A program made the position numbers and the translations under genes. Below the pieces are notes generated by a model that worked only from the letters and a program-made list of their open reading frames with translations, had not been told where the DNA came from and ran no database searches. Shown here one piece after another: positions 1 to 37,004 of a stretch of 64,000 bases of DNA; within the stretch, counting starts at the first letter, position 1, and each line of letters begins with the position of its first letter. Source of the stretch: Blasia pusilla (Eukaryota); contig CM114271.1 of assembly GCA_050084515.1 (NCBI GenBank), positions 16,182,001 to 16,246,000 on the forward strand, given 5' to 3'.

Positions 1-791
1 TCTGAGAGAGCAAGTTTTCCCTTCGTTTCGGCTCATTTAGAGCCATATTGAGAAACTTACTATTTTAGGTAAGTACCATTTTGATTATATGGTTGATTTT
101 CTATTTTTGGTAAGTGACCCTTGACCTCCTACATCAGGTTAAGAGCCAAGGTGGTGACTTGGGAGCATAAGTTACCATGGAGAGAGCTTGGGAGAGGGGA
201 GGGGTATACCTAAAGGAGAGAGAGCTTGAGAGCTCATTTCTCTTTGTTGAACCTCTTGGCATAAGGCGGCAGAGCTTTGATCCCTTGTCTTGTGAGTGTA
301 ACCCAAGCCTCTCATTAGGAGAGTGGGTTTGGTTTGACATTGAGAAGGACATGTGAGAGTGCACACATGTGAGAACTATGGTATTGTGAGAGAGATTGGA
401 TCTTATTTTACAAAGAGAGAATGAGTGAGAGAGAGCTTCATGGGGGAGCTTGCTTGTTGCCGCACAACATACGTCTCAGTGAGAGAGTGTAGATTTAGTG
501 CCGCATGTTTAGTTTGAGTGATTGAGGGATTACTTGCAAGATTGAGAGTGATCATGTGAGAGGGGCACAAAGGGAATCACGGCGTCCTTTTGGGACTTTG
601 AGACGTCTGAGAGTGCACACGTGTGAGAACTATGGTATCGTGAGAGAGATTGGATCTTATTTTATTAAACATATTATGGTACTTCTTGTCTGGTTATTTG
701 GATGTCATGAGTTAGCATGGGATCTTGCGTGTTTGTATGTGTGTTCGGTAAAAGCGATGTATGTTGAGTAGCAATGTGTATGCACACAACA
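1..791 (+). mobile_element. Non-coding internally deleted derivative (or solo-LTR-like copy) of the DNMT-Gypsy family; 5' end lies outside the window
   Basis: 1-450 is the reverse complement of ~30640-31090 and 455-605 of ~29050-29200. 607-665 re-duplicates 354-410. 668-791 is the reverse complement of the element's 3' end (21716-21840) and ends ...CACAACA. Confidence 0.75.
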
Positions 792-2275
792 AGGCCTGCA
801 CAACATGCATCTAAAGCCTGCACGAGCAATAGCCAAACTCGTATCAATACTCCCATCCATGTTCAAAAGATGAAATGGCACACTATTATGCACATGATCT
901 TTCCAAACGGTACCATCATCACCCTCTAAAACAAGGACTCCTGATTTCTCGCACTCGCATAATAGTGTCTCCCGCCGTAACGTCCAATGTCTTCGGCATT
1001 GTCTGCTGTAGGTAGACAAAATTTCTAGGATGGAATCTCCGATTCTCTGGTCGACACCCTCCTCCACGTGTAGTCGCGAATCTTAGAGTATCGCGATGTT
1101 GATCAATAACCAGGTTCTCAAACGCCATAGGCATGACTCTATGAAAGAGCTCAACCCGCTAAGAACACACTCGCACCCAAATGTTTGGATTGTCAAGATC
1201 AAGCACCTCAACCAAATCTCATCGAATAGACAATGGTAACTTTGGCTCTCTCCTCTAGCCGCTCCCTCACTCAACCTATCCGGCAATGCTACCAACTCAA
1301 TCGATTTGGAAAAGTGCTCCACCATGACCAACATATACCCACTATGGCGTCCTATCAATGGCAAAGGACCTACAAATTATAAACTCCAACTATACCCAAA
1401 TCCCATTATCGATAAAGGATGCGAGTGTGGTGTCGGAGCATTGAATGATGCCCGCACCCTATCACATACAATGCATATGGCTACAAACTTTTGAACATCA
1501 ATTCGCATACCACGCCTCCAATATTGAATCTGAATCAAGCTATACGTACCCTCGAATCCAAAATGCCCTAACTCATCGTGAGCATGTCTCACAAACGGTG
1601 CTCGATGCAAAGGATGAGGTACCATCCGCACTCGTCCATCCTCCCAAACTCCAAGCTAATGCGATCCCTCCCACCTGAACCTCTTGACTCGCTGTAGGAC
1701 TCGATCTTGATCTCTAGCATCCACCATGCTTGCTAAGACACCAGTGCGCACATACTCCAAGACCAACTCATCATCATGGATTTCTCGAGTTTGTGTCGAC
1801 TCCTCACCAGCATTTGGATCTTAGGACTCACCATCAAACCTCCCTCTTGGAGTGGATGCCTCTTGCTGACCTGACAGAGCCAAAAGACACAAATACATAG
1901 ATGCATGCCAACCCCGGACTATCTCCTCATCACTCTCACCATGCCACCGCGCTCCAGTGGCATCGTTGTGGCTTGTGCATGGGTTATGGCTCAACACCTC
2001 CGCATCCTGGTTCAAATATCCTGGGCGATGGACAACTTGAAAATCGTACTCCTGCAACAAGAGTGACCATATGGCAAGCTTCCTTGCAAGCGTGTCAGAC
2101 TCCATCAACCATATGAGTGGCTTATGATCAATGATGAACCTGAAAGGGTCCTTGAACAAATAACATCTGAAATGGGTCACTTCCCTCACTACAACTAAGC
2201 ACTCCCCCTCGTAGGAACTCTACATTGCCTTCATAGCTTTGTTCAAGCGGCTCGCATATGCCACTACAAACTCAT
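792..2275 (-). pseudogene. Ty3/Gypsy pol fragment (RNase H - integrase - start of PHD) of the same family as 21716-31194
   Basis: ORF pieces IIDHKPLIWL..LLLQEYDFQVVHRPG (RNase H), HAHDELGHFG..CIVC (integrase Zn finger), VMVEHFSKSIELVALPD and VWKDHVHN..RCMLCRP are collinear with 22015-24089. The integrase core is partly deleted and the fragment has stops and frameshifts. Confidence 0.9.
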
Positions 2276-9229: not shown

Positions 9230-17640
<8,411 letters not shown>

Positions 17641-20600
17641 TGCAGTCCTTCAATTACCTCCCACCAAGACGAAAGGAACCAGAGATTCTTAAAAGAAGGC
17701 CATGGTTTCCACCAAATTGCGTGAAGGAAAACAGACGAGGACCACTGAAAATCTTTAGGCAAGGTGGCTAAAAACCGGGAACGAAGGGCGTGTGAGGAGA
17801 AATCTCAAGTTGTATAGCCAACAAAATCCACTGGGTAAGACTCCTGTCCGAATTGAGGAGTGCTCCGACGGGATCATAGGACACGCATTAGATGAAAGAG
17901 ACACCAACGAATCCTATCTGCGTGTATGGCGAACTTTCTCGGGCCATGAAGTCTGCTCTAAACTACTTCAAGGAACATTCGGGGCAAGGAAAAAACACGT
18001 CCTCTAGTAGCTGGTGGCAATCCTAAGCGTGTCAAAAGCTTCTCTTTGATAATGACTTGTAATAAACCCGGAAAAAACTCCACGAGCGGCCGCGGTGATG
18101 TCCATCATGTCCTTGGGATCATTTCGAGTTCCAGAATTTAAAGACGACAGCAGGGCTTGCTCATGTCCGAATTGAAAGTAGATACCAACGATTCGAAAAG
18201 CTAACTACGTACAATACCGCTCCGAATTTTTCCATCTTCAAGAATCATGAAACGTAGTCGCATGTTCACTTATGATTATAATCCAGAATCAAACACTTCT
18301 AACAAGACTAAAAACGACTGCAATTCAAAGTGCACATCACCAATCCACTAGAAGATGCAGTAAGACGTACCATAGAGCAGCAAACAAAACTTCTTGTCCT
18401 CCAAGCGAAATGGGCCGCACAAAGCTCCATCGTCACCAACTTCACGAACGCTTCTGCGTATGGAGCAACGCTCTGGCTTCGGCTCTCATCGGCCCTCTGG
18501 CTTCAGCCTGAGCTGCAAAAATTAAAGAGGCCAGTGCATCCACTGCGTTCCAAGCGGACAAGAGGCGGGTCACAAGGTCTGCCAAGCGTCGCAATAACGC
18601 CGTCGCGATGTACATGGTGATCTCGACGGAGACGTGGTCACTATGAGCAGAAACACCTCTCCGTCGCATTTCAGACGGCCTACTGGATAGGGACGTCGCG
18701 ATGCGTCCAAATATTGACGGGTGTCGAGCGGAGAGAGATGACAGCGCCTCCGGACAAATGCATCCGTCGTGTTAGTGACGGTTATCTCGACGGAGAAAAT
18801 GCAGTATGGAATGAAAGTGAGAACAAGATACTTTGAGGATATTGTAGTTATTATATGCTAAAAAACAATTTTGGGCGCTTGCAACTAGTGGCGTTGGAAC
18901 TTGTTGCAAAACTGCTTACAAGTCTACCAAGTATGCGGTCTGAAAGGGCAGTTTTGGTGGTAGCAATTAAGTGAAAAAAAATTAGGAGCAAGAAAAAATA
19001 GCTATTTGTTAACTTTGGAAATATTAGATAATTTTCGAGTGGTAGGACATGCCCAATTGGTAAGATAAGAAGTGAGTAACTTTAGTGTATAAATCAGATA
19101 CAAATGCAAAACACACCGAGTGCATAAGGTTTGTATAATTATAAGTGACTGAAATGGAAGCAAGGGTATTCTTATAGCATATTGTGATTGGCACATTGTG
19201 AACGATTAAATAGTAGAACATGAAATCATAAGGTTTTTTATGGATTTTATTAGAGTATTATAAGTGCCTGGAAAGGGGTTGTTTTAGTTGTGATTTAACA
19301 AGTTTCCGAATAGCAAAAGAAAAATTTGTATATGAATGAGATTGCAAATGGAGGTGGCTTGTGTATGTTTGTATGCGCAATGTAGAATGATAGTTGGATG
19401 TGGTAGAGAGCCACACAAAATGTAATTAAGCAAACTAAAATGAAAGATTGCAATGTAAATAAACCAAAGAGAATAAGAGTGAGTAATGATCTCAACCATT
19501 GCAAAATAGCACTGACAGAGACAATTGTGTACTTGAGTCTGAGTGCTTTTGCCAGAGACTTTCTCAAAATCTGCAAAAAAGACTTCTAGGAGAGATAAAA
19601 ATTGCCACAAAACTAATTGACACGTCTATTTCCGATGCAAAACAACAAACACAATATGGATTTAATTGTCAACATCTGTAGTTAAAGCTTGGGATTATCC
19701 TGAATTAAATGCTCGATGTCTTTGGAGAAGTCACCAAAGTCATCTTTTGCATTTTTCACTTGTTCTTTCACAGTTTGATGAGCTAGCAAGTTAGAAGCAT
19801 GTTTGTCATAAGTTGAATCTAATTTCCAAGTAAGATCGCGTATTCGTGTAGATAATTGATCAGATTTCTCTTCAACTTGACTCAATGTCATGCATGCATT
19901 CTAATATACTTGTACATGTAATGATACTACATGATGTGATGAGCACTCATTTTTTTCCCCTTTGGACTACATCAATGTGTTCTTGAGGGATCCTAACACT
20001 TGGCACACCATTCACCAGATTAAATCTTCCTCGATGACATGGTAGTCTGGTTGTGATATGTTGCTCATGAGTCATGAAATGACAGAACTAGTGTGCAGTC
20101 AGCGTAAGTGGGAAATAAGTGTATTGTAGAATAAGTCTGGAGATTATGTAGAGAGTTGTATATCGCTAGTGTATGAAAAAAATCTTTTGGTTTGAAATAG
20201 AATTGAAAGTTGTGCAAATGTGAATGGTTTTGTAGCCTAAAATGAGAAATAGATTAGGTTAGGAATTCACGGAATTTTGAATTCAAGGAGTATTGAATTC
20301 ATTTGTAGGAGCTCCTTTGTGTAGGAGTTTTAGGAATAGTAGGAATTGGGGAGCTTGTGAAGTTACTTATATGTGTCCTTTAGCACGTGGATCTTGTCAA
20401 TGGTAAATAAGAGGTAGCTTAGTGAAGAGAAATGGAATTATAAGAGTTTTGATTGATGCATCAATGAGAGGTGCTATGTATTTCGACTTTCTTACAAAGT
20501 AGGGTGATATTAGAGGACATGTTAATCAAACAGAATGTTCTAACACGAGCATAATGGAGTATTACCGATACAAATATCTGAAAACAAAATTTGCACTAGA

Positions 20601-22036
20601 TGTTTTTAATTAGGAAAGAATGAAAAAAACCTTCTCTGCAGAGATAACATGGTTTTGCAAAATGGAATTTGCGTATTTGGTAAAATGATGTAATGTTTTT
20701 AGGAGTATCATCAAGTTTGGCATATAGCTGCAGTAGGCACTAAAGGAGTTCATGCTTGTAGGAGTTAAAATTTGGAAAAACAGAAAGAAGGTATTATTGC
20801 CTAATACATACAGAGATATTCTATATGTGGTACTAATATTTGCTTGGTGATCCCATTGACAGAAGACCGAGGCTGTAGCCAGTGCCTGCATATCACAAGG
20901 TACAACGGTTCAGATTGCTGAATTATAAATGCAAATTGAAAAAAGTAGAAGGAACGTGTGCATGTGGAAGAATAGAGCTTGGAAGAATGGAGGTAGAAAA
21001 GCAGGTACAATCTGAAAAATGGATGAATGCAGCATTGGTATAGGGCGAGTAGCATATTTGTAGAATGTACTAAGGAGGCCTACTCAAAGATGAATTAAAA
21101 AATTTGAATACATATAAGGTAGAAGAAAAAGAAGGGCACTTGAAGTATGAATAGTTATAGAACATTTTACTTGCAAATCAGTTACGAAGCAAGGACTGAT
21201 TAATCCCTGACTGGAGCTTTAACTTCGGGTTGTGCTCAATGAGAGGGTTAACTTCAGCAATGAAGTCTTTGAAATGCCTTTGTGCTTCTTTCAAATTCTC
21301 CTTAAGATCTGAAACAATGTGCATATGGATGTCGTTCTCCTCGTAAAGCGCAGATAGCTCGTCGTTGAGGTTGTCTCTAATATCTTTATCCAATCATGGG
21401 AGTTATCCAATTGTGCCATGACTCCCAATTACACGTGAAGAGGAATAGTGGGACGAAGTGAACCATGGTCTGTTCGTGATTGCACCTCTAGTTGATGCTA
21501 CGGTGGAACAATGCAAGGAGTTGGAACCGAGTAAGGTTGACATCTTGAAGGTTGCCTACTTCTCATCTGGAAGTACATAAGCCAACGAGAATGTAGGGTT
21601 AGACCAGCATGGACATCTCTATAACGAATTGGTGGAAGGTAGTGAACAGGAGAAGCAGTGGTAAAATTTGAAAATCAGAATCCATGTTGAAGCAATGAAT
21701 ATGAATTACGACAATTGTCGTGCCCATACACATCGCTACACAACATACATCGCTATCACCGAACACACACACAAACACGCACGATCCCATGCTAACTCAT
21801 GGCATCCAAACAACGAGACAAGAAGTACCAAAATATCTCCAATTGCCCCCCTAGCTGGTGGTTAGGTCCCTCTAACTCCAGAAAGCAATCTATTCCTACC
21901 TACCATGACATACATCTCTCGAACGCTAAGAGCAAGAAGGCCGGGTGCTCATGTGGCCCCATCGTTAGTCGCCTTCCTGTCATCCATGTCAGAGAAAAAG
22001 GTCGAGATCGAAACCTACCTAATATCTCCTCTATGT

Positions 22037-22170
22037 ACATCTGGGACACATCCATTGTCCCCGAGGAACCCTAGTAGAGGTGGCGTCAGACATGCCATAT
22101 GCCAACCTCTCGAACAACCATCATAGACTAGCATCGTGGCCGCACCACGGGCAGAACCACACAACATACA
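22037..22170 (-). pseudogene. PHD-type zinc finger at the integrase C-terminus
   Basis: RCMLCGSARGAATMLVYDGCSRGWHMACLTPPL, then after a 1-nt frameshift VPRGQWMCPRC. This is a C4HC3 pattern with the diagnostic W; the third Cys is mutated to Tyr (TGT>TAT). Confidence 0.85.
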
Positions 22171-23330
22171 ACGCAAGCCTATAGGAACTACTGCTAAGCT
22201 CGGATCCACTGTACTATCAATGTTAGGAAGGTGACATGGTGCACAATTACGCACATGGTCCTTCCATACCATACCATCGCGTCCCTCCACCAAGAGAACA
22301 CCGGATGGCAAAACGTCACGCACTCTCAGGATAGTGCGCCTTGCAGTCACATCCAACGTCGTCGGTGCCGTCTACTGTAAGTAGACATAATCTCCTTGAT
22401 GAAACCTCCGGATAGTTGGTCGATAACCACCACCCCGAATAGTCGCATACCTCAACGTATCCCGATGTTGCGCAATCGCAAAGTTCTCGAACGCCATGGG
22501 CATCACTCTGTGAAATAACTCAGCCCTCTGAGAACATGCTCACACCCATACATCTGGGTCATCAAGGTCCAGCACCTCACCAGCATCTCGACGAATGGCC
22601 GCAGGTAAATCTGGCTCTCGGCCATAAAGTAGCAAGTACGGTGAAAAAGACGCTAAGGATGCCTGCCTGCTGAATCTGTATCCCATCGCCAACCATGGCA
22701 ACTCGAGGTCCCAATCTCCTAGGTGACCTCTCTGCAAGCCATACTTGTGTAAACCCCTCTTCACCGTCTACACAACTCTCTCCGCTAATCCATCCGCCTT
22801 GGCATGATCTCGTGAAGTTGTGCGGTGCTCGATCAGTGCTTGATCACACAAGGCTTGGAACTCACCCCAAAACTCGGTACCCTGGTCTGTCAATACCTCA
22901 GCCGGTGCGCCATAATGACTCAGCACTCTGTCAAGGAAGGCATAAGCTACTCCCTCACTCGCTTTGTCAGGCAATGCAACCAACTCGATCCACTTCGAGA
23001 AGTGCTCGACCATCACCAACACATAACGACTGTGACGCTTTGTCAAAGGCAAAGGTCCTACAAAATCCAAACTCCATCTATACCCTAAGCTCATGATCGG
23101 TAATGGATGCAATTGTGGAGTCGGAGCATTGAACAATGCTCGGACCGGATCACACACCATGCACCTGGCAACAAACTGCTGAACGTCAGTGTGCATGCCT
23201 CGCCACCAATATCGAATCCGAGCAAGTCAGACGTCCGCTTCACCCCAAAGTGACCCAAATCCTTGTGGGCATGCTGCACTAGTCGTGCTCTCTGCGAAGG
23301 ATGCGGCACTACGCGTACTCTGCCATCCTC
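22171..23330 (-). pseudogene. Gypsy integrase (HHCC Zn finger plus D,D35E core)
   Basis: HAHKDLGHFG..CMVC, WSLDFVGP, VLTDQGTEF, ADGLAERVV, SPYLLLYGREP. Confidence 0.93.
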
Positions 23331-23699
23331 CTAAACCCTCAAAACATGTGTCCCCTCCCAACGGAACCGTCTGGCCCGCTGTAGGATCCAATCTCGCTCT
23401 CTAGCACCCATAGTGCTCGCAACGCTTCCAGTACGAAGGTACTCCAAGACTACTCCATCATCATGAATATCTTGGCCACCTGTCGTCTCCTCACTGGCCT
23501 CGGGATCCAAGGACTCTCCATTAGACCTTGCCATCGAAGTCTCCACACTCTGGCTCTCCATAGCCAACATGCCTAAATAGGCTGACGCGTGCCATCCTGG
23601 CACCGACTCCTCATCACTCTCTCCATGCCATCGAGCTCCAGTCGCATCTCGCTGACTCGGGCATGGGTTACGACTCAACCCATCTGCATCCCGGTTGAG

Positions 23700-24089
23700 C
23701 GTCCCAGGTCTATGTACCACGTGAAAATCATACTCCTACAACAACAGAGCCCATCTCACAAGCTTCCTTGTAAGCTTTTCGGACTCCATCAACCACTTCA
23801 GTGGTTGATGATCAATGATGATGGTAAAGGGGTTGCCGAATAAGTAACACATGAAATGCGCGACTGCCCACACCGCAGCCAAGCACTCACCCTCATACGA
23901 GCTGTATTTTGCCTTTGTTGCGTTGTTCCAGCGGCTAGCGTAAGCCACCATGAACTCTCTACCCTCATCATCATGCAGGGTGAGCACCGCTCCAAGCCCC
24001 AACATGCTCCAATCTGTGTGCAACTGGAAAGGACGCCCCCTGATCGGTCTCCTCAAGATAGGCGCAGACGTTAACTTGTCCTTGAGCAA
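23700..24089 (-). pseudogene. Gypsy RNase H
   Basis: LTSAPILRRP..FQLHTDWSMLGLGAVL..VAYASR..YSSYEGECLA..IIDHQPLKWL. Confidence 0.92.
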
Positions 24090-24095
24090 CTGAAA

Positions 24096-25030
24096 TGCTC
24101 ACTCCTGCTCATCCCCCCAGTGCCACTCGTGATCCACCTTGGTCAGCAAGGTCAGTGGCTTCGCAATTGGACTGAATCCCTTGACGTATCGTCGATAGAA
24201 GTTCGCCAATCCCATGAATGCGCAAACACGGCTCACATCTGTAGGGCGTGGAATGGGTGAGATACCCTCTACCTTCGTTTGTTGAACACCAAGGCCCCCT
24301 GGGTATATCGTATGACCCAAGTACTCAATCTGGTCGTAGAAGAACTTGCACTTGCCTGGATGTAGCTTCAGCCCATGTAATTGCAATCATCAAAATACCT
24401 CCTCTAGTTGTCGCTCATGCTCCTCAACCGTGGTGCTAAAGACTACGATGTCATCAATATAACACCTAGAAAAATCCAGACCAACCAAGATCCTATCCAT
24501 GACCCTCTGAAACTCAGCCGGGGCATTCTTTAACCAAATGGTAAGAACCGCCACCGGTACAAAAAATCCTTCCCGTGAGGATCGATGCCCCAAAATGCCA
24601 TCTTGTGCCTGTCCTCCAATCTGATATGCAGCTGATGGTATCCGGCTCGCAAATCCAAAGACCTTTGCGTGACCAATCGCATCAAAGATCTCCTCAGGGG
24701 TGGGCATGGTATACCTATCGGACTTCGTCTGCCGATTGATAGGTCGGTAATCCCCACACATCCGCCTATCCGTCCAATTGCCATGCACATCCTTCTTGGC
24801 GGGCATGACAGTGGCAGATGCATACTCACCATGCACATCTCCACTAGTCCTTCTCTGACCAAGTCCTCGCTCCTACTCTCAATCAGAGCCCTCTCCATAT
24901 CACTGTACCTGTAGGGTCGTCAAAAGATCGGCGTATTACTCGACTACTCAATGCGGATCCTCGGTCCCTTCAGCGTACCCAAATCCTCCATGCTAAACTC
25001 AAAGCAGCTCCTATAACTCCTGAGGAAGTG
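24096..25030 (-). pseudogene. Gypsy reverse transcriptase
   Basis: RRMCGDYRPIN, LDLRAGYHQ, LPFG/LKNAPAEFQRVMD, CYIDDIVVFS, KCKF..IEYLGH, FMGLANFYRRYV, across frameshifts. Confidence 0.95.
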
Positions 25031-25399
25031 ATGTATTCGGCGCCGCTCTCCTCCTGTCAACTTAGGGCCCATATCTGGCTCCCAAGTCTCCATCGTGACT
25101 ACGGTAGGACTCTCCGGCGTGGATATCGGTGGTTGCTATGGTGCAACCCCGTCTCTAAGAACAACACTCGGCCGCTCTCCTGCAGCCAATTGCAAACTCT
25201 GATCTCCTCCACGTGCAGTGCCCGAAACCACGCTCGATGTTGTGGCTATCATCTCCTTGCGTACCTGCAAAACATCCCAAGAAGTCCAAGGATGTCTCTC
25301 CTGATCTCCTCAGGTCTTGCCCCCAGCCATTGCCTCCACCATCTCGGTAGGCATGGGGCTCACCAACGCAATCGTTGTGATCTGTCGCGATCTCATACG

Positions 25400-26380
25400 A
25401 CGTTGTTCAGCCACTCCCAAGTTGAGGCTCCATGTCAAGCAGTTCAGGTCCATCGCCTGACCCAAGACATGGCATCGTGATGCCTCTGACACTGATGGTA
25501 CTACCGTCACTCCTGTGGGAAATCCCATTGCTCGCTCCCTCTCGTCGGCGTTGGGCTCCACTAACCGCTGAACCTGGTCATCCCAAACCAAGCCAGGACC
25601 GGCCTCCTTGTATGCATAGGAAGGGGGAAAACTTACAAACGTGGGTAAGGTTGCCCGCGGCCTGCCTACCCTGTTGACCACAGTCCACTGTAGTCGATCA
25701 TCGTGCCTCACTGCCTGTGATCGATGACCTGGATCCAGAATGGAATCCACTAACAAATGGGAGGGGCTCCACTCTCGCATACGCCCTCCGTAACACCGCA
25801 TGGGGCACCAAGTTGGTCCACCATAGACACGGGCGATGGGCTCTAGAACCTACACTCGCCGCATCCAAGAACACTTCTAGGCCGATCCAGGCACGCACCT
25901 GATGAGCACTCGTCACCACCCGTGACCGGAAGTCTCCTAAGATCAGCACATTCTCCAGAATGTAGGCTGGAGAATGAGACTGGTGCTCCTACAACTGCCG
26001 TAAGACCCTCAACATCTCCCAAAACAACCTGGATCGAGTGTCAACCAACCCACTGCCTTGTCTAGCACTCGATTGGCCCTGACATGGCCAACCGGCAATG
26101 ACCAAATCAATGGTCCCTACCCGCTCTAAGTCCTACGCCCCCAACAACAAAATATCCCTCGGTAGGGAACTCTAATACCTCAGATCGCTGGACGCTTGCA
26201 TACAATAAGTCGGGAAAACGTAGGCGTAACTGTGCCACATGTCGTAGTGAGACACGCCTCGCAACATCATCACTCTCCACATACAGGTACTAGTGTACTC
26301 GCACTTCTGCCTGCAAAACAGCAGCTAACCCGGTGTTAATCCCTCCAAAGAGATCTAACACTCGAATACCCTCCTCCGGG
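25400..26380 (-). pseudogene. C5 cytosine DNA methyltransferase domain (DNMT3-like) embedded in pol between protease and RT
   Basis: Manual translation gives motif I IRVLDLFGGINTG (~26330-26367), II YLYVESD, IV IDLVIAGWPCQGQS (catalytic Cys codon 26082-26084), V RSRLFWE, VI YILENV (ENV 25947-25955), VIII LDAASVGSRAHRPCLWWTNL, IX ERERAMGFPTGVT and X RCHVLGQAMD. The domain is broken by three TAG stops and two frameshifts. Confidence 0.92.
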
Positions 26381-26582
26381 GTACACCACACAATGGGTGT
26401 GGTATCCAAGGGTGTCATCGTAGCAATCCTTGCTACCTCGGGTTCCTCAGACCCGTCACGCTCCGGTGACGGGTCTGAGGAACTCCAAGGGCCTGACGGG
26501 TCTCACTGTTAGGTGATGGGCGCCTAAATGAGCTAAGGCACCCATCACCTAACTGCCATCCTGGTCTGTAGGACATTGACTC

Positions 26583-26920
26583 CTCCTAGTAATCCACGGA
26601 AAAACCCATCGGGTATAACACTACTCCACCAACCAAGACGTCGTAGGACTCTGCATCAATCACTATCGCCTTGGCGCGCACCACAGACTCATCTGTAGGA
26701 TGTCTCGGGCGAATTCTCACCACGACCTCTTGTCGAGTGATATATTGTGTGGTACTCGCTCCACCCAAGGATGTCTGTATCCGAAATGGACAACGCTCCA
26801 CATCGGCTCTCGTCAAGCCCAATCCTCTGAATGACGCTTTCCCCAACATCAGGGGTTGCGCTCGAATCCAACAAGATGCGCTGCGGACTAAAAGCTCTAT
26901 CTCCAGGACTCACCAACTGG
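26583..26920 (-). pseudogene. Retropepsin-like aspartic protease
   Basis: RILLDSSA (degenerate DSGA active site), then after a frameshift MLGKASF..YDVLVGGVVLYPMG. Confidence 0.8.
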
Positions 26921-27299
26921 AAGATCTCTCGTCAGTTATCCAGCAACACAATACCAGGAGAAGCCATGGCACGCTCTATCGCGGGTCTAGAGGGCATCTC
27001 CGCCATTCTAGCATCCGCAACCTGCCATGAATCTGACGTGGATGGTCCGAGCATCCGCTCCAAGGGCAGGTCCATCACCTCCTCTGCAATCACCTCTGAA
27101 CGTGATGCAGGAACTCCAACTCCGCACTCACATAGCGACGCGGCCAGCCGAAAAGCCTCGTCGGGCGTACCCCCCAACGTCATAACATCGGAAGCAGAAA
27201 ATAAAGGAGTGCGGTACACAATGGTGGCCGCCCCCAACAATGTGCTCGACACATGCCCCTCCTGAGCATCAACAATAGGAGTCATTGCACTCGCTTCTC

Positions 27300-29000
27300 C
27301 CATTGCCCTCCGTGCTTGCACACCAAAAACATCACCAACTCTCAAGGAACTTTGATGAGGACCCATCGATGGGGTCCTCATCGCTTCGGACAACGTGAAA
27401 GACTGAGGAAGCCTAGTCTGTTTTTAGGCTTTCCCTCGTTGTGGATCCAACTGTGCGGCTGCTCCACGCGTCACAACCGCAACGGCCTCCATGTGGGCAA
27501 CCAGGATCCTCCAGATCTCTAGCTGCTCCATATGATGTCGATGCCATGGATCCGGCATCGGGTAACCTCAATGCCATAGCGGCAATCTGCTCCTGTAGCT
27601 ATTGTATCTGAGTAGCCATCCCAGCCTCACGTCCAACGTCTCCCTCGGCGCGTCTAGGTGGTGGTATTCTACCTACTCCACGTGCAGCTCCATCACCCTG
27701 TCGGGCAACTCCAGCTCCTCATCCCCCAACGGGACCACCTGGTGCACGATCTCTAGGCCCACCCGGACCGGCTACTTGCTCTGGTGCCCTCTCTGGCCCT
27801 CACTCCGAACGTAACTCAGGATGTAAACTGAAACACCTGGCGCGTGTATGACCATACCTCTGACAATAGTCACACTGATAACCTCCTGGTGCAACACCAT
27901 CTCCTCCTCCATGCTGAGGCATACGTCCATGACCCTGACGAGTGCAATGGCATTGATGATGGGCTCCACCACATGACCAACAAGTAATAGTAGGCGGCTG
28001 CTGTTGAGCCGCATATGAAGGCGCAGGTCTCTGTACCACTTGCTCCCAGTATCCTCCTTGAGCTCGTGGTGCCACAGTTGACCTATCTCGGAGTCCACGT
28101 TGTTGCACAGGTGGTGCAGCCAATCGCGACTGCTCTCACCCAAAACCCATGGTGGCTACGCTCTCCTCCGCCATGTTGCGCTCAATTTTCTCGGCGGTTC
28201 TAAAAACATCTCTCAACATAGGGGAGGTGTTCATAAGAAGCGCCCCCTCCCGCACCCGTGGCCGCAGGGTCAGGTCCAGCATCGCGTACCATGACTGGAT
28301 AGCCTGAGCCTCTGTCACCCCCTGAGTGACGTTGATCAACCGGTGCAAGCGAGTGTAAGCCTCACGTAAACTCTCACCCGGGCGCCTCTGGAAGTTGTGG
28401 ATGCTCCGCAAATTTTCCATCCGTACCCCTTGGTAGCTCGCCCTCAACTCAGCAAAGAACTCAACCACGGGGTTGAACCTGGGACGAACCCGACTAGACG
28501 GTGCAACTGCTCTAGTGCGAGTGACCCCTCCTAAAACATCACTAGTGGAAGAGCAAGTAGCCTCTCCTAACTCCTCCTCCTCCTCATCTGGGAACGGCTC
28601 CATCCATGACACATAGTGTGGGTCGTAGGAGAGTAGCCATGCCTCAATCTCTTGGGCATATCTGTGGGAAAACTCATGGTAATTGTCCATTGGTGCCCCC
28701 TCTAAATGCTGGAACATAGCGTTCCATGCTATAAACGGGTTGAACTCTCTAGAATTCCTGGCCCGATGGGAGTCGCACCAACTCCTAAACTTGCTATGAA
28801 ATCATGCAACTCAATCGTACCTACTGCACCTGAAAACCTACGCTGTCCTCTACCCCGGTCGTCCATCTCGTACGCCCAACTGGTAGGACCACTCACAATG
28901 TGTGGCGATGTGCTTACAAATTCCTCTACACCCTCCCCCTTCTCTGACAATGACACAGAAGGAGGTCGAGGTGGTCCTTGAAGTGAAGACCCTCGGAACC
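27300..29000 (-). pseudogene. Gag with two zinc knuckles
   Basis: FQRRPGESLREAYTRL (retrotransposon gag Q..GES motif), CWSCGGAHHQCHC and CDYCQRYGHTRARC (CX2CX4HX4C); frameshifted. Confidence 0.88.
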
Positions 29001-31194
29001 TCACGCCACTCCGCGTAAAACCTCTAGAGCTACTCTCGGGTTCACCACCTCGCCTCTCAAAGTCCCGAACGGACGTCGTGATGACCCTCGTGCCCTTCTC
29101 ACCCGATCACTCTTACCTCGCGAGTAATCCCTCAATCACTCATCCCAAACATGCGGCACTCGATCTACACTCTCCTTCCCCGAGAGATGTAACGTGCGGC
29201 AATAAGCGGCGTGGTGGGGCATATCGACTAGGCTATCATTTCATCGATAACCTATCCTCAACTCCGGACATCCCACACAGGTCTATGTCCCCTAAACCAC
29301 ATACATAAATGATGCTCTCAGCATCCACACACCCAATATCCCCAAATAAACTACCCAAATCCCAGAATCCCTCACACGTGCAGGGTAAAGGACCAGAATG
29401 GGTAACCTGAACACATGTCGATGTCGTTGCTCAGCAACTGCAAATCTTGACCCCAACTCGATCGTGGAGACATCTCCTCCAATCAGCAAGTCATACTCCT
29501 CCCATACTGACGTTGCTCAAAACTCCTCGATAGACTGTGCAGTTCCAGCGGAACGGTGCGGCGTTACAGGTGGCACGGAACGGCTACGAACGGCACGACC
29601 CTCGATGGTGGGATGCGGCACTTGGCGGCATACCCTCCTCAATCAAAATAAACCCACACTCTGCTCCACAATGCCGGAGCAGCTCCGCGATCGAGACGGT
29701 GCGGTGCGGCCACGAGCGGCACGGCGCGGCAATCAGCGGCGCGTTGCGGCTAAGGGCGTCACGGCACGGTACTTGATCGTCGTTGAGCGGCTACCAATCA
29801 CAACATAGCAGCATGAAATCAAAACTCAAACACTATAACATGACGTCATATGCCATCACAGGTTGATGACGGTGGCGGCCAAAACAAAGTACGTGATGGC
29901 AACGCAAGTCCAAAAATTAACGAACGATGTGGAAGACCCTCCACTCCGTAACGGCGGCAATGGCAACCAAGGGTGGACAATGGACGGTGGACCATTGACG
30001 GTGACGGTAGACCGTTGATGGTGACAGACAAACGGTGACGGTGACAGTTGACCATTGATGGTGACGATTGACCGCCGATGGTAGAAGTTGACCGTTGATG
30101 GTTGACGGTGATTATGACGGTGGCGGCTGGTTTAGGGTTTGCACAATTTAACCCTAAAAATCGCCTAGCAATGGCAGTTTTGCAATATTGACCATAACTT
30201 TTTGCTCGTAACTCCAAATTGCGCCTGTTTATTGCACAGCGTGCACAACTTCACGATCTACGCCAGCACAAAAAATATTTGGAATCGGACATTCCAGTAA
30301 AAACTGACAGGGACTGTCGTAAAGCCCAATGTCTCTTTCTTCTACCCAACATTTGGCAGCGCTTTCGCACTGATTTTTCCCAAAAAAAATGTAAAACCTG
30401 TAAAAATGCAAATCAGCAAGCTACATGGTGCTCCTGAAAGCACCGGCATGGGGCAACCCGCCCCCATACTCAATCCCTATCAGAAATTGGGCAGAGCTTC
30501 CGCGCGCCACTCTTCCACACGAAAAATCGGCAAATGCAAAGAACAATCCAAGCAACCCTTGCTCCGATGAGCACTCCCATGAGCCATTGAACGGGGAACA
30601 CGGTCCCCAACTTGCAAAAACAGCGAGTGACCAGCGAGCTCCCCCATGAAGCTCTCTCACTCTTTCATTCTCTCTTTGTAAAGTAAGATCCAATCTCTCT
30701 CTACACAATTTCACACCATATCTCTCAAAGGTGTGCACTCTCTCTCATGTCAAACCAAACCCACTCTCCTAATGAGAGGCTTGGATTACACTCACAAGGC
30801 AAGGGACCATAGCTCCGCCGCCTTATGCCAAGAGGTTCAACAAAGAGAGAATGAGCTCTCAAGCTCTCTCTTCTTGGGATATATACCCCTCCCCTCTCCC
30901 AAGCTCTCTCCATGGTAACCTATTCTCCCAAGTCATCTCCTTGGGTCTTGACGTGATGTAGGAGGTCAAAGTCCACTTACCAAAAATATAAAGTTGATCA
31001 TATACTCAAAATGGTACTTACCTAAAATAGTAAGTTCCTCAATATGGCTCCAAATGAGCCAAAACGAAGAGAAAACTTGCTCTCTTAGGTTTCCCGGGGC
31101 CTCAGCAGGTCATCCTCAACATCCTAGGCATGTCCTCCACTACTCTTGAAGACGCTCTACTAGATCTCACCGATCTATCCTAAAGGAGGTGACA

Positions 31195-33326
31195 ACTACC
31201 TCGCCTCTCAAAATCCTGAAAGGATGCCGTGTTGGCCCTTGTGCCCCTCTCACACGATCATTCTCAATCTCGCGAGTAATCCCTCAATCACTCAAACTAA
31301 ACATGCGGCACTCAATCTACATTCTCTCACTAAGACGTGTGTTATGCGGCAACAAGCAGCGTGGTGTGGCAAATCATTGATTTATCGTCTCATCGACAAA
31401 CCATCCTCAACTCTGGACATCCCACACAGGTCTATGTCCCCTAAACCCATACATCATCGATGCTACAAGCATTAGCACGAAACCCAATATCCCAAATAAC
31501 TTCCCAACATCCGAAAATCCCTCACACATGCAGGGTAAGAGACCAGAATGGATAACTAGACAATAATGTTGATATCGCTCTTTGGCAACTGCAAATCTCA
31601 ACCCCAACTTGGTCGTGAAGACAACTCCTCCAATCAGCAAGTCGTACTCCTCTCGTATTGACGTTGCTCAAACCTCCTCGATGTGCGGTGCACGTCGAGC
31701 GGTCTGGTGCGACCCTGGCAACATGGAACGGCTACAAACGACATGGCACTCGGCGATATACCCTCCTCAATCAGAAATTCACATGCTCTGCATCTTAATG
31801 AAGGAGCAGCTCCGCGATCGAGACGATGTAGTGCGGCCACATGTGGCACGACGTGGAAATCGGCGGCATATTGCGGCTACGGACGTCACAACACAATACT
31901 CGATCATCGTCGAGCGGCTAACAATCCCAACATAGCAACATGAAATGAAAACTCAAACACCATAATCCAAGGTCACTTGCCATTATTGGTTGATGACGAA
32001 ACTGCGATGACGGTGGCGACCAAACCAAAGTACGTGGTGGCGGTGCAAGTCAAAGAATTAAAGGTGGTCGTGGAAGACCCTCCACTCCGTAATGGTGGCA
32101 ATGGAAACCATAGGATGGACAACGGACCGAATCGGCTCTAAAAGCGACACTAAGCGCGAAACGGCCGGCGGTGGGCGGTGGACGGTGGACCGTTGACCGT
32201 TGACCATTCCAATTGACCATTGACCATTGAAGGCGGACCGTTGATGGTGACTATGACGGCGACGGCTCGTTTAGGGTTTAATCAATTTAACCCTAAAAAT
32301 TGCCTAGCAATGGCAATTTTTCAAGATTGACCATAACTTTTTGCTCGCAACTCCAAATTGCGCACCATTTATTGCACAGCGTGCACAATCTACAACAATG
32401 TCAAAAAATATTTGGAATCAAACATTGCAGTAAAACTGACAAGGACTGTTGTAAAGCCCAGTGTCTCTTTCTCTTACACAAAATTTGGCAGCGCTTCCGC
32501 ACAGATTTCTCCCAACGAAAATGTAAAACATGTGAGAACACAAATCTGCAAGCTACATGGTGCTCCCGAGAGCACCGGCATGGGGCAACCCGCCCCCATA
32601 CTCAATCCTTAACAAAAATTGGGTAGTGCTTTTGCGCGCCATCTTCTACACGAAAAATTGGCAAAGGAAACATCACAAGTAAGCGGTTCTTGCTCCGATG
32701 AGCATTCCCATGAACTGCTGAACGGGGAATACGATCCCCAACTTGAAAAGCCAACGAGTGATCAGCGAGCTCCCCCATGAATCTCTCTCACTCACTCACT
32801 CATTCTCTCTTTGTAAAGTAAGATCCAATCTTTCTCTATACCATCTCACACCATAGTTCTCAAAGATGTGCACTCTCTCTTATGTCAAACCAAACCCACT
32901 CTCCTAATGAGTGGCTTGGGTTACACTCACAAGGCAAGGGACCATAGCTCCGCTGCCTTATGCCAAGAGGTTCAACAAAGAGAGAATGAGCTCTCAAGCT
33001 CTCTCCTTGAGGTATACCCCTTCCCTCTCCCAAGCTCTCTCCATGATAACCTATGCTCCCAAGTCACCTCCTTGGCTCTTGACCTAATGTAGGAGGTCAA
33101 GGTCCACTTACCAAAAATAGAAATTTGATCACATACTCAAAATGGTACTTACCTGAAATAATAAGTTCCTCAATATGGCTCCTAATGAGCCAAAACGAAG
33201 GGGAAACCTGCTCTCTCAAGTTTCCCAGGGCCTCAAACAAATCATCCTCTACCTATTGATCCTGTCCTTTGCTGCTCATGAAGGCGATCTACTAGATCTG
33301 ACCGATCTATTCTAAGAGACATGACA
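31195..33326 (-). mobile_element. Second, diverged copy of the ~2.1-kb 5' leader/terminus of the DNMT-Gypsy family
   Basis: Collinear with 29045-31194 over its length. It starts TGTCATG on the minus strand at 33326 and stops at the position equivalent to the gag start. Confidence 0.85.
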
Positions 33327-36300
33327 TCTTGGACGCGGACCCACACAATGTGAGGGGCGATGAGCTTGGGACAATTGATTTCTTCGAGAAAAATAACAGA
33401 GAGAAAATGAACATTGGAGTTGGTCCAAGACATTAGCTTTTGGGGGATGAGAAGTTAGTTGGGAAGAGCAAAATGGAGGCGCTTGTTGCCGTAGCAATTG
33501 AGGCCCCATAAAAGGGTAAGAAAGTAGGGAGGAAGTCAAAGAGAAGGCATGCAGTGAGTTCTTTTATATCACGGGAGCTCAAAGCTGATGAGTAGCAAGT
33601 GAGAGTAGTCAGGGGCGAGGCACAACAATCTGCTACCTATAAGGTTCTACGTCCATCTCAAACCACTTGTGACAGTGCGGAAGAGGCTCAGGGAGTGAGT
33701 CCCTTGAGCATTGGAGTTGGAGTCATATATGTTCAAATGGTGGTTGAACTTGAACCTGAATGAAAGAAATGTAGACTCTCCTACTATGGAAACAGGAGAA
33801 AGTGGTAGGATGTTGGAAAGCGCTGAAGAGGTCAAGGAGGAATCAAGTGAGGAACAAAGCTTTGGCGAAGTAGATGAAGTGGTGTTAGGATTGACAGGTC
33901 CGCCATCATAACTAGGTGCGGAGAGTTTTATCGCAAGCATTTTAACAGAATCTGGACTAGATGATATCGTAGAGTTCAAAATGGTTGATTCCACTCCATA
34001 TGTATTCGTTAACCCAAAATCGCAGTCCAAGACACAAGCGCAGACCAAAGTGGTTGTAGAAAAAAGAGCAAGCACAAAGTAGAATCGGTTGAGGAGTACT
34101 TACCTCTCTATCGCTTGCGGCTTGTGTGGAGTTAGGATTCACCGCAGATTGATTGAGCACACACGATACCCTTACAAGACTGAAACACTTTGGAAAGGGT
34201 GGGGAGAAAGACGTTCAATAACTAGTATTATGATTAACAAAGAGGCCCAAACGAGTTGTAACAAGACTAACAAAAGCCCCAAGGGAGCCAGATAAGAACC
34301 GTGCAAGACGCGCAGAGGTAGGCGGAGATTACTCTTCGCATCAAACAAGAAGATTCAGAAACAAAGCGTGACTTGAACACGAGCAAGAATTGGAGCTCTG
34401 CATCTTAATGAAGGAGCAGCTCCGCGATCGAGACGATGTAGTGCGGCCACATGTGGCACGACGTGGAAATCGGCGGCATATTGCGGCTACGGACGTCACA
34501 ACACAATACTCGATCATCGTCGAGCGGCTAACAATCCCAACATAGCAACATGAAATGAAAACTCAAACACCATAATCCAAGGTCACTTGCCATTATTGGT
34601 TGATGACGAAACTGCGATGACGGTGGCGACCAAACCAAAGTACGTGGTGGCGGTGCAAGTCAAAGAATTAAAGGTGGTCGTGGAAGACCCTCCACTCCGT
34701 AATGGTGGCAATGGAAACCATAGGATGGACAACAGCCGAATGCGGCTCTAAGCAGCACTAGGCGACGGAAACGGCCGACGGTGGACGGTGGACGGTGGAC
34801 CGTTGACCGTTGACCATTCCAATTGACCATTGACCATTGAAGGCGGACCGTTGATGGTGACTATGACGGCGACGGCTCGTTTAGGGTTTAATCAATTTAA
34901 CCCTAAAAATTGCCTAGCAATGGCAATTTTTCAAGATTGACCATAACTTTTTGCTCGCAACTCCAAATTGCGCACCATTTATTGCACAACGTGCACAATC
35001 TACAACAATGTCAAAAAATATTTGGAATCAAACATTGCAGTAAAACTGACAAGGACTGTTGTAAAGCCCAGTGTCTCTTTCTCTTACACAAAATTTGGCA
35101 GCGCTTCCGCACAGATTTCTCCCAACGAAAATGTAAAACATGTGAGAACACAAATCTGCAAGCTACATGGTGCTCCCGAGAGCACCGGCATGGGGCAACC
35201 CGCCCCCATACTCAATCCTTAACAAAAATTGGGTAGTGCTTTTGCGCGCCATCTTCTACACGAAAAATTGGCAAAGGAAACATCACAAGTAAGCGGTTCT
35301 TGCTCCGATGAGCATTCCCATGAACTGCTGAACGGGGAATACGATCCCCAACTTGAAAAGCCAACGAGTGATCAGCGAGCTCCCCCATGAATCTCTCTCA
35401 CTCACTCACTCATTCTCTCTTTGTAAAGTAAGATCCAATCTTTCTCTATACCATCTCACACCATAGTTCTCAAAGATGTGCACTCTCTCTTATGTCAAAC
35501 CAAACCCACTCTCCTAATGAGTGGCTTGGGTTACACTCACAAGGCAAGGGACCATAGCTCCGCTGCCTTATGCCAAGAGGTTCAACAAAGAGAGAATGAG
35601 CTCTCAAGCTCTCTCTCCTTGAGGTATACCCCTTCCCTCTCCCAAGCTCTCTCCATGATAACCTATGCTCCCAAGTCACCTCCTTGGCTCTTGACCTAAT
35701 GTAGGAGGTCAAGGTCCACTTACCAAAAATAGAAATTTGATCACATACTCAAAATGGTACTTACCTGAAATAATAAGTTCCTCAATATGGCTCCTAATGA
35801 GCCAAAACGAAAGGGAAACCTGCTCTCTCAAGTTTCCCGGGGCCTCAGCAAATCATCCTCTACCTATTGATCCTGTCCTTTGCTGCTCATGAAGGCGATC
35901 TACTAGATCTGACCGATCTATTCTAAGAGACATGACATCTTGGACGCGGACCCACACAATGTGAGGGGCGATGAGCTTGGGACAATCGATTTCTTCGAGA
36001 AAAATAACAGAGAGAAAATGAACATTGGAGTTGGTCCAAGACATTAGCTTTTGGGGGATGAGAAGTTAGTTGGGAAGAGCAAAATGGAGGCGCTTGTTGC
36101 CGTAGCAATTGAGGCCCCATAAAAGGGTAAGAAAGTAGGGAGGAAGTCAAAGAGAAGGCATGCAGTGAGTTCTTTTATATCACGGGAGCTCAAAGCTGAT
36201 GAGTAGCAAGTGAGAGTAGTCAGGGGCGAGGCACAACAATCTGCTACCTATAAGGTTCTACGTCCATCTCAAACCACTTGTGACAGTGCGGAAGAGGCTG

Positions 36301-37004
36301 GGGAGTGAGTCCTTGAGCATTGGAGTTGGAGTCATATATGTTCAAATGGTGGTTGAACTTGAACCTGAATGAAAGAAATGTAGACTCTCCTACTATGGAA
36401 ACAGGAGAAAGTGGTAGGATGTTGGAAAGCGCTGAAGAGGTCAAGGAGGAATCAAGTGAGGAACAAAGCTTTGGCGAAGTAGATGAAGTGGTGTTAGGAT
36501 TGACAGGTCCGCCATCATAACTAGGTGCGGAGAGTTTTATCGCAAGCATTTTAACAGAATCTGGACTAGATGATATCGTAGAGTTCAAAATGGTTGATTC
36601 CACTCCATATGTATTCGTTAACCCAAAATCGCAGTCCAAGACACAAGCGCAGACCAAAGTGGTTGTAGAAAAAAGAGCAAGCACAAAGTAGAATCGGTTG
36701 AGGAGTACTTACCTCTCTATCGCGCTTGCAGCTTGTGTGGAGTTAGGATTCACCGCAGATTGAGCACACACGATACCCTTACAAGACTGAAACACTGGAA
36801 AGGGTGGGGAGAAAGACGTTCAATAACTAGTATTATGATTAACAAAGAGGCCCAAACGAGTTGTAACAAGACTAACAAAAAGCCCCAAGGGAGCTGTAAT
36901 AAGAACCAGTGCAAGACGCGCAGTAGGTAGGCGGAGATTACTCTTCGCATCAAACAAGAAGATTCAGAAACAAAGCGTGACTTGAACACGAGCAAGAATT
37001 GGAG
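31785..37004. repeat. Near-identical head-to-tail tandem duplication, units 31785-34394 and 34395-37004 (~2610 bp)
   Basis: Identical or near-identical ORF pairs (32300/34910, 33242/35853, 33711/36320); differences are mostly small indels. Confidence 0.93.
33327..34394 (-). mobile_element. Possible heavily degraded L1-like LINE segment (ORF1 end / endonuclease start); duplicated and extended at 35938-37190
   Basis: Only weak motifs: LPTARL, QCFS/CKG (knuckle-like) and NAQGL (resembles the APE N-terminal NxxGL motif). Confidence 0.3.

Follow-up and report, generated by a model that had tools for sequence, protein, structure and literature searches.

A DNMT3-like cytosine methyltransferase domain within the pol region of a Ty3/gypsy-type retrotransposon family of liverworts, mosses and a zygnematophyte alga

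A stretch of 64,000 nucleotides from Blasia pusilla (GenBank assembly GCA_050084515.1, contig CM114271.1, positions 16,182,001 to 16,246,000 of the forward strand; the window, with positions counted from its first letter) was analyzed for a retrotransposon copy that carries the remains of a C5 cytosine DNA methyltransferase (DNMT) domain. The sequence between positions 21715 and 31195 on the minus strand is, with a probability of roughly 0.85, a dead copy of a Ty3/gypsy-type element with a Gag-Pol organized as gag (CCHC), protease (PR), DNMT, reverse transcriptase (RT), RNase H (RH), integrase (INT) and PHD finger, in which the DNMT is of the DNMT3 type and forms a fixed and selected part of pol throughout the family. 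The coordinates of all features are collected in table 1.

The original prediction, made from the letters of the window, had placed a C5 methyltransferase domain between the protease and the RT on the same strand, with motifs I to VI in stop-broken frames. All motifs that it named were located on the minus strand, and the domain occupies three frames, interrupted by two in-frame stops and two frameshifts. The predicted position (25400–26380) was right and the predicted extent slightly too narrow (table 1). Aligned together, the three pieces tile the entire DNMT domain of intact relatives, and motifs I, IV (PC), VI (ENV), VIII, IX and X follow each other in unpermuted order. A comparison with the Pfam family PF00145, proposed at the time as a check, returned a match for the middle piece (E = 1.4e-9, 38.3 bits with a cut-off of 22) and no Pfam match for the outer two pieces when these were scanned alone. 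In a word-indexed search 34 database proteins matched the middle piece (144 amino acids) with E values from 7e-48 to 1e-9, and the match is therefore far beyond chance. The window DNMT retains 12 out of 13 invariant and 19 out of 21 near-invariant columns of the family; the invariant second arginine of motif VIII is replaced.

The domains that flank the DNMT are as previously described, with a protease-region open reading frame (ORF) upstream and RVT_1, RT_RNaseH, Integrase_H2C2 and rve matches downstream. The window copy thus displays the pol order PR-RT-RH-INT of Ty3/gypsy (Metaviridae-type) elements, with the DNMT inserted between PR and RT. This part of the earlier description of the element holds, and what it overlooked are a PHD finger behind the integrase and terminal repeats that resemble those of DIRS elements. 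The window gag matched Retrotrans_gag below the Pfam cut-off (E = 6.5e-4, 20.3 bits, cut-off 24.1). The protease-region ORF had no Pfam match of its own, and its counterpart in a related protein (P0048) matched Asp_protease_2, also below the cut-off (E = 2.8e-4, 22 bits, cut-off 24.3). From gag to RNase H the copy is collinear with Marchantia polyproteins (tblastn), and a tblastn comparison with Marchantia and other polyproteins identified at least eight frame changes between gag and integrase, in addition to the in-frame stops. The window copy is dead and cannot make the enzyme: it carries frame changes and stops, has lost the motif VIII arginine and lacks the A2-B2 pair of terminal repeats described below.

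Intact relatives display the same organization. In two Marchantia proteins (P0002 and P0014) the DNMT is located ahead of RVT_1 and RNase H within a single protein. A further relative, P0048 (2188 amino acids), encodes in one uninterrupted frame a zf-CCHC zinc knuckle (residues 530–547), an aspartyl protease (796–888), the DNMT (978–1226), RVT_1 (1421–1575), RNase H (1638–1766) and an integrase (1895–2061), and the order PR-DNMT-RT-RH-INT is likewise found in one uninterrupted frame of P0235 (2318 amino acids). A scan of Joint Genome Institute (JGI) metagenome contigs identified 77 loci of the window type (type A) and one locus of the other type (type B, L079). The RT is located downstream of the DNMT in all 50 metagenome loci that hold both domains, and the protease is upstream of the DNMT in all ten loci with a protease match; one locus (L017) contains an additional upstream RT from a second element. 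Overall, an intronless DNMT3-related domain is found inside the pol ORF of a Gypsy-type element, and the DNMT is an integral part of the element's pol and not an accident, which agrees with the claim of the original prediction that it belongs to the pol polyprotein. Two of the metagenome loci, L017 (9354 nt) and L054 (21100 nt), each contain parts of two family elements in the same orientation (RT-RH-INT followed by DNMT-RT-RH-INT), in tandem or nested. A scan of viral contigs for the family returned a single weak match (39% identity over 64 residues at 10001–10177 of the IMG/VR contig L001), and this probably represents a common C5 methylase of a phage or virus without relation to the family.

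The conservation of the domain was analyzed at two levels. Among 14 sequences from both clades of the family described below (pairwise identity 33–46%, with one pair at 80%), 13 columns are invariant and include the catalytic Cys-Gln, the glutamate of ENV and the Ala-His-Arg-x-Arg of motif VIII. The ratio of nonsynonymous to synonymous substitutions (dN/dS, Nei-Gojobori method, stop codons masked) was calculated for 25 metagenome copies with a one-frame DNMT, leaving out 52 of the 77 loci because of frameshifts or partial cover. The median for the DNMT was 0.52 over 294 pairs, with values below 1 in 290 of them, and the ratio was 0.88 at dS < 0.1 versus 0.17 at dS 0.6–2 (21 pairs); the corresponding value for the RT was 0.38 (78 pairs, 14 copies). 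A ratio that falls with distance is the pattern expected if old divergence accumulated under constraint and recent divergence represents the neutral decay of dead copies. The DNMT is free of in-frame stops in 3 out of 25 copies, and many of the loci L002–L078 keep one frame in the DNMT and RT regions and hold one to five in-frame stops. For the majority of the DNMT stops (44 out of 63), one C>T change on the coding strand accounts for the difference from the commonest codon. Such changes would fit the deamination of methylated cytosine; the count is inflated by shared descent and by codon usage, and no conclusion was drawn from it.

The DNMT of the window might instead be a host DNMT3 pseudogene or fragment that was captured by, or is nested in, this single Gypsy copy, since the copy is broken and the DNMT is found in only one copy within the window. 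This explanation has practically no probability left and was rejected, as the same order recurs in 50 out of 50 loci, in the one-frame polyproteins P0048 and P0235 and in 14 proteins from Marchantia, and dN/dS is below 1 in nearly all pairs. Three outcomes had been named beforehand as contradicting the original prediction, and none of them was observed. The first was the lack of a significant PF00145 match, which is opposed by the match of the middle piece. The second was a capture limited to this copy, with PR joined directly to RT in other copies, which was not seen among the 50 loci; the third was a consensus DNMT that is out of frame and evolves neutrally, to which the natural one-frame PR-DNMT-RT proteins and the dN/dS values are opposed.

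The kind of METHYLTRANSFERASE was assigned by comparison with proteins of known structure. A profile built from 11 relatives and searched against all Protein Data Bank (PDB) chains ranked DNMT3A first (E = 3.7e-19), followed by DNMT3C and DNMT3B (approximately 2e-16), tobacco DRM (2.6e-10) and M.HaeIII (7.6e-8), with weaker matches to Arabidopsis DRM2 (5.5e-7), M.HhaI (1.3e-6) and DNMT2 (approximately 1e-5). The match to tobacco DRM is only partial, as expected because DRM is a permuted enzyme, and none of the 54 PDB matches listed at E ≤ 0.01 was a chain named as DNMT1 or chromomethylase. A natural relative was modeled with AlphaFold2 (pLDDT 65.8, pTM 0.74; good in the core and poor at residues 1–35 and 266–303), and the model was compared with known folds using Foldseek; only DNMT3A, DNMT3B and DNMT3C chains were present among the matches listed (ranks 1–50, with gaps), with TM-scores of approximately 0.7 normalized to the target and 19–23% identity. 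By this ranking of scores, rather than by a tree, the domain is predicted to be of the DNMT3 type and closer to DNMT3 than to DNMT1/CMT, DRM, DNMT2 or the bacterial enzymes. The likeness to DNMT3 noted in the original prediction is thus borne out by profile and by fold, its argument that an unpermuted order excludes the DRM arrangement agrees with the motif order that was found, and Pfam scans of the window pieces and of a set of relatives gave no match to the BAH and chromo domains that it had reported as absent. The same scans found no PWWP or ADD accessory domains. The family domain shares with the catalytic domain of animal DNMT3A, 3B and 3C the motif I pattern F-[DG]-G-I-x-T-G and the motif VIII pattern AHR-R-WW/FW-N. 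It differs from them in its low identity (approximately 20–23%), in the absence of PWWP and ADD, in being part of a retroelement polyprotein, and in approximately 100 extra residues between motifs VIII and IX, which is where the DNA-recognition part of DNMT3 lies.

The family is large. An exhaustive profile search of 1.84 billion cluster representatives (clusters at 50% identity) returned 422 proteins at E ≤ 1e-30, and relaxing the threshold to 1e-10 and to 1e-3 raised the number to 1,922 and 10,746; the best 150 representatives all scored at least 223 bits across the entire DNMT domain. The hosts named by source among the 34 matches to the middle piece were Marchantia polymorpha (14 proteins), Calypogeia fissa (4), Sphagnum troendelagicum (2) and Closterium (1). 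A second search with named hosts added Sphagnum fallax (1 protein) to the window-type group, and Haematococcus lacustris (2 proteins) and Cymbomonas tetramitiformis to a group in which the DNMT follows the RT; a EukProt entry tagged Mesvir1, which is presumably Mesostigma, contained the DNMT only. By these sequence matches the window-type family occurs in liverworts, mosses and a zygnematophyte alga.

The position of the DNMT within pol divides the family into two architectures. Among 184 proteins in which RT, RNase H, integrase and PHD finger were mapped by phmmer, the DNMT precedes RT/RH in 13, follows RT/RH or directly precedes the integrase in 82 and is the only domain in 89, and the commonest order in the DNMT-after group is RT-RH-DNMT-INT-PHD (31 proteins). 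A FastTree phylogeny was constructed from 175 DNMT segments, with 10 proteins whose segments were shorter than 200 amino acids left out and the breaks of the window sequence filled with X. One clade (65 tips) contains the window and all 11 proteins with the DNMT before the RT and none with the DNMT after it, and the other 110 tips hold all 82 proteins of the DNMT-after group; the SH-like support for the nearest starred set (68 rows) was 98. Behind the integrase, a C-terminal module with the full C4HC3 pattern of a PHD finger was identified in 28 type-A loci, and the same module is present in the algal sister group (56 match rows among proteins). The green-algal sister group, with Haematococcus lacustris and Cymbomonas tetramitiformis as examples, resembles the window-type group in its homologous DNMT (approximately 35–47% identity over the entire domain), its integrase-PHD module and its Ty3/gypsy backbone, and differs in that its DNMT is located between RNase H and integrase instead of between protease and RT, and the DNMT tree separates the two groups. 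This points to one backbone with two positions of the same DNMT, for which a relocation within pol would be more likely than two captures, in a comparison limited to DNMT-bearing elements.

Sequencing runs of the same organism show that the element is abundant and transcribed. These runs hold up to 41% of the sampled words of the element, and in one DNA run 187,869 contig pieces aligned to positions 21574–29600 at a likeness of at least 90%. For RNA, two raw-read runs with the same species label were aligned to the window, and 3233 of 10.1 million and 3023 of 12.0 million records matched the element. The majority of these reads (2801 and 2687) are only 90–95% alike to the window and therefore come from other copies. 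Along the element, first mates are approximately 10–100 times commoner on the plus strand than on the minus strand, and in four bins across the DNMT they reach a depth of 26–37 / 15–27 on the plus strand and 1–3 / 0–1 on the minus strand. By the usual library convention, the family is transcribed from its sense strand, which is the minus strand for this element. At three sites, 55–94% of the RNA reads differ from the window copy in length by a single letter, and some length changes of the window copy are therefore absent from most transcripts.

The ends of the element were delimited by comparison with related loci. No flanking direct-repeat pair of the long terminal repeat (LTR) type was found around the window copy by blastn (word sizes 7–8) and a repeat search. 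Among 32 related loci of at least 9 kb that were surveyed for terminal repeats, four (L038, L054, L057, and L078) contain full pairs of two repeats, A and B, in the order A1 (328–342 bp), an internal part of approximately 8 kb, B1 (113–117 bp), A2 and B2. Only the A pair was found in L007, L044 and L046 and only the B pair in L068, and self-comparison revealed no terminal repeats in the type-B locus L079 or in four shorter loci. Seven related loci are homologous to the window copy at the nucleotide level down to exactly 21845 and no further. This position is the counterpart of the first B1 base in L057 and L038, and positions 21843–21715 were therefore read as B1. A reading of the flanks as the empty site of another repeat was dropped on the same grounds. 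The A2-B2 pair expected after B1 is missing, and the DNA to the left of 21715 is unrelated and covered by none of four sequencing runs.

In other copies, as judged by the loose ends of RNA reads to the left of 21710–21718, the B repeat adjoins the start of a 2.15-kb unit that in the window is located upstream of gag; a 30-letter consensus of the loose ends is not found in the window at up to three mismatches. At window positions 792–452 the end of the 2.15-kb unit comes before the same B (the left end of the unit adjoins B at 452–792), and the copy at 1–603 lacks approximately 1.4 kb of the A unit. Units of 2.1–2.6 kb are repeated in tandem upstream of gag (29044–37004, approximately 3.3 copies); the two outer ones are 98.5% identical (31785–34395 versus 34395–37004), and the first 550 bases of the unit are covered by RNA and DNA reads. 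It is probable that A1 corresponds to 31195–29044, that B1 is present and A2-B2 missing, and that the A unit was amplified in tandem up to 37004.

Table 1. Features of the retrotransposon copies in the 64,000-nucleotide window.
Feature	Positions	Strand	Remarks
Putative upstream terminal repeat A1, ~2.15 kb	29044–31195	-	Suggested by the A..B-A-B layout of relatives
gag region	27530–28851	-	Collinear with residues 9–423 of Marchantia protein P0008; includes a zinc-knuckle-like part (27800–28135)
Protease region	26526–27498	-	Collinear with residues 435–753 of P0008 and 27–266 of P0002
DNMT3-like C5 DNA methyltransferase domain	25313–26502	-	Motifs I–X unpermuted; two stops and two frameshifts
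DNMT piece 1	26502–26110	-	Stop at 26292–26290
DNMT piece 2 (middle)	26132–25701	-	Stop at 25991–25989
DNMT piece 3	25849–25313	-	
Motif I LDLFGGINTGL	26358–26326	-	
Catalytic-Cys motif AGWPCQG	26096–26076	-	
Motif ENV	25955–25947	-	
Motif SRAHRPCLWWTNL	25847–25809	-	
Motif ERERAMGFP	25543–25517	-	
Motif LGQAMD	25465–25448	-	
Reverse transcriptase, frame-split	24099–25099	-	RVT_1 E = 6.6e-7; collinear with P0002 and P0048
RNase H	23736–24098	-	RT_RNaseH E = 1.3e-30; RT_RNaseH_2 E = 3.1e-27
Integrase (H2C2 zinc finger and DDE core)	22435–23735	-	rve E = 3.1e-15; Integrase_H2C2 E = 6.4e-7; collinear with residues 1909–2181 of P0048
C-terminal conserved module with PHD finger	22018–22371	-	PHD match just under its cut-off (E = 1.7e-4, 22 bits, cut-off 24); last part out of frame
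Short terminal repeat B1	21715–21843	-	Homology to seven loci stops at 21845; loose ends of reads cluster at 21843–21845
Second, more decayed related copy (integrase and RNase H only)	947–2264	-	73% nucleotide identity to 22316–22619 and 22950–23948; tblastn matches to P0048 and P0002
Third copy, 3' end (A2-B2 junction), runs off the window	1–792	+	792–671, a 67-nt spacer and 603–452 are reverse-collinear with 21715–21836 and 29055–29207

The element has a G+C content of 0.53 between 21845 and 29043, versus 0.39–0.45 in its flanks, and its GC skew of approximately -0.15 to -0.23 on the plus strand corresponds to a G-rich coding strand. Two near-perfect hairpin palindromes of 57 and 47 nt (26436–26490 and 26508–26553) are located in the linker between the protease and motif I of the DNMT, and seven RNA reads of one run contain a joint of opposite strands at 26506/26579. 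Elsewhere in the window, a multi-exon gene of the mnmA type (tRNA 2-thiouridylase) with long introns extends over 9233–17649 on the minus strand (CpG observed/expected 0.45), with an N-terminal PP-loop exon at 16945–17649 (PF03054, E = 8.6e-9) and a C-terminal exon at 9233–9763 (PF20258, E = 4e-12). The several exons of this gene point to a plant-like nuclear genome, and the closest relatives of the element suggest that its host is bryophyte-like. Remains of a MULE-type DNA transposase are found at 51474–53082 on the minus strand (PF10551, E = 1.4e-8 on 51883–52302), next to ORFs that belong to no family. A long coiled-coil gene on the plus strand (59026–63470, CpG observed/expected 0.32) contains an open exon of 844 amino acids whose sole Pfam match is Tropomyosin-like (E = 2.8e-11) and for which a database search returned nothing.

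Elements of this kind have been published for a charophyte alga. By the published description of de Mendoza et al. 2018 (PMC5890265), KnitGypsy-Dnmt3 of Klebsormidium nitens carries an intronless and unpermuted DNMT3-related domain inside its Gypsy pol ORF, under purifying selection, and A-coding-B-A-B repeats are reported there for SymbioDIRS-Dnmt3 and, in the legend of figure 4, for KnitGypsy-Dnmt3. The family described here shares the intronless and unpermuted DNMT3-related domain inside a Gypsy pol ORF; the full repeat layout was found in 4 out of 32 loci of at least 9 kb, and a dN/dS below 0.2 was reached only in the distant pairs. It differs in its hosts, which are liverworts, mosses and Closterium instead of Klebsormidium; the comparison is with the published description alone, and no protein named as Klebsormidium was found in either of the two named database searches with the family. 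SymbioDIRS-Dnmt3 of Symbiodinium also combines a DNMT3-type domain in pol with A-coding-B-A-B repeats and, as described in the same paper, differs in having a tyrosine recombinase in place of the DDE integrase, in its dinoflagellate host and in what its authors consider an independent acquisition; CG methylation in yeast is reported there for its isolated domain. A chromatin reader behind the integrase is known from the chromoviruses among the Ty3/gypsy elements, where it is a chromodomain and not a PHD finger. EpiLTRs, in the preprint text available (10.64898/2026.05.21.726589), possess a chromatin reader behind the integrase and a DNMT of their own, which is reported as sister to DNMT4 and located with an adenine methylase at the 3' end of pol.

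As far as its main text goes, de Mendoza et al. 2018 (PMC5890265) describes DNMT3-bearing Gypsy elements in Klebsormidium nitens only, and the words Marchantia, Physcomitrella, moss, liverwort and PHD are absent from that text. A later paper (PMC12344493) and the EpiLTR preprint (10.64898/2026.05.21.726589) speak, in the portions available, of "streptophytes" and cite de Mendoza et al. 2018. A full-text search that did not extend to supplements found no paper that names a DNMT-bearing Gypsy in Marchantia, mosses or other land plants, or that names the Marchantia gene identifiers involved. Within that scope, this agrees with the original prediction, which had named such elements as reported from dinoflagellates and Klebsormidium and as not known to be described from land plants. 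The bryophyte relatives are already present, unremarked, in public annotations, and the land-plant clade, the second architecture and the PHD companion were not found in the literature texts searched.

Several points weigh against the view of the DNMT as a selected, DNMT3-type part of a living family. The DNMT3 assignment is a ranking of scores and not a placement in a tree of named DNMT classes. The activity of the enzyme is a prediction, and the Klebsormidium domain gave no detectable methylation in yeast, a result that its authors call inconclusive (PMC5890265, as far as its main text goes). For KnitGypsy-Dnmt3, the main text of de Mendoza et al. 2018 (PMC5890265) reports a Ka/Ks of less than 0.2; the much higher overall value of 0.52 obtained here is due to the decayed state of most copies in the comparison. 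Only nine and three RNA reads of the two runs are at least 99% alike to the window, and the assignment of the reads to the sense strand depends on the usual library convention. The window copy lacks a flanking repeat pair, and the 2.15-kb unit would be an unusually long A1, as the A repeats of the relatives measure only 307–342 bp. Finally, the CpG observed/expected ratio of the element is 0.72, versus 0.67 for the window, and no footprint of self-methylation is visible; the base composition speaks neither for nor against any of the proposed roles of the enzyme.

The favored role of the DNMT, held at a little less than even odds, is the methylation of DNA newly copied from the element itself. 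Intact members would produce the DNMT within their Gag-Pol and package it in the particle alongside the RT. It would then act on the new copy during reverse transcription and integration or shortly afterwards, and the insertion would bear its mark from the moment it joins the genome. Integration would most likely be steered by the PHD finger behind the integrase through its reading of histone H3 tails. Methylation of the new copy at or after reverse transcription has been proposed in the published account of de Mendoza et al. 2018 (PMC5890265), and the original prediction had suggested the cDNA or the integration site as possible targets. Alternatively, the DNMT may work on host chromatin, either in the neighborhood of the integration site or at other loci in trans, with the PHD finger choosing the chromatin, and could in this way limit the copy number of the element or blunt host silencing, for example. 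The PHD histone reader accompanies the DNMT in both architectures, and the family is abundant and transcribed, so that the enzyme could be present in cells; however, the PHD finger is attached to pol next to the integrase and not to the DNMT, from which it is at least 1000 residues away, and this role is considered unlikely.

A target other than double-stranded DNA, in which the domain modifies RNA or an RNA:DNA hybrid within the particle (5-methylcytosine on the genomic RNA that influences stability, packaging or translation), would suit its location directly upstream of the RT, where it would be packaged with RNA. RNA methylation is raised for a LINE-borne DNMT in the main text of de Mendoza et al. 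2018 (PMC5890265), and the result in yeast for the Klebsormidium domain would fit it. The best matches in sequence and fold are nevertheless the DNA enzymes DNMT3A, DNMT3B and DNMT3C, with the RNA enzyme DNMT2 approximately 14 orders of magnitude weaker, and the stretch of approximately 100 residues between motifs VIII and IX is conserved, which leaves action on RNA quite unlikely. A non-catalytic role, in DNA binding or as a structural spacer in the polyprotein, would likewise be compatible with a Klebsormidium relative without shown activity, but is very improbable given that, at 33–46% identity, the members of both clades all or almost all retain the catalytic cysteine, the glutamate of ENV, the arginines of motif VIII and the SAM-binding motif I.

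The wider picture is tentative and, taken as a whole, rather doubtful: bryophyte-grade plants including Marchantia may carry a large, transcribed Gypsy lineage with its own de novo writer of methylation and a PHD reader, the writer may have moved within pol from the RH-DNMT-INT order of the green algae to the PR-DNMT-RT order of zygnematophytes and bryophytes, and transposable elements may, if the enzyme is active, lay part of the methylation on bryophyte transposable elements. Hosts silence such elements mainly through cytosine methylation, and an element that carries its own methyltransferase reverses the usual picture. Elements of this kind have so far been described only from a charophyte alga and from dinoflagellates, and their presence in Marchantia, where mutants, methylomes and routine transformation are available, makes the purpose of a transposon-borne DNMT testable. 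It also calls for caution in annotation, as transposon copies are counted among the "DNMT3-like genes" of bryophyte genomes. If the enzyme is active, bryophyte transposons would owe some of their de novo cytosine methylation to their own copying process, and not to the host.

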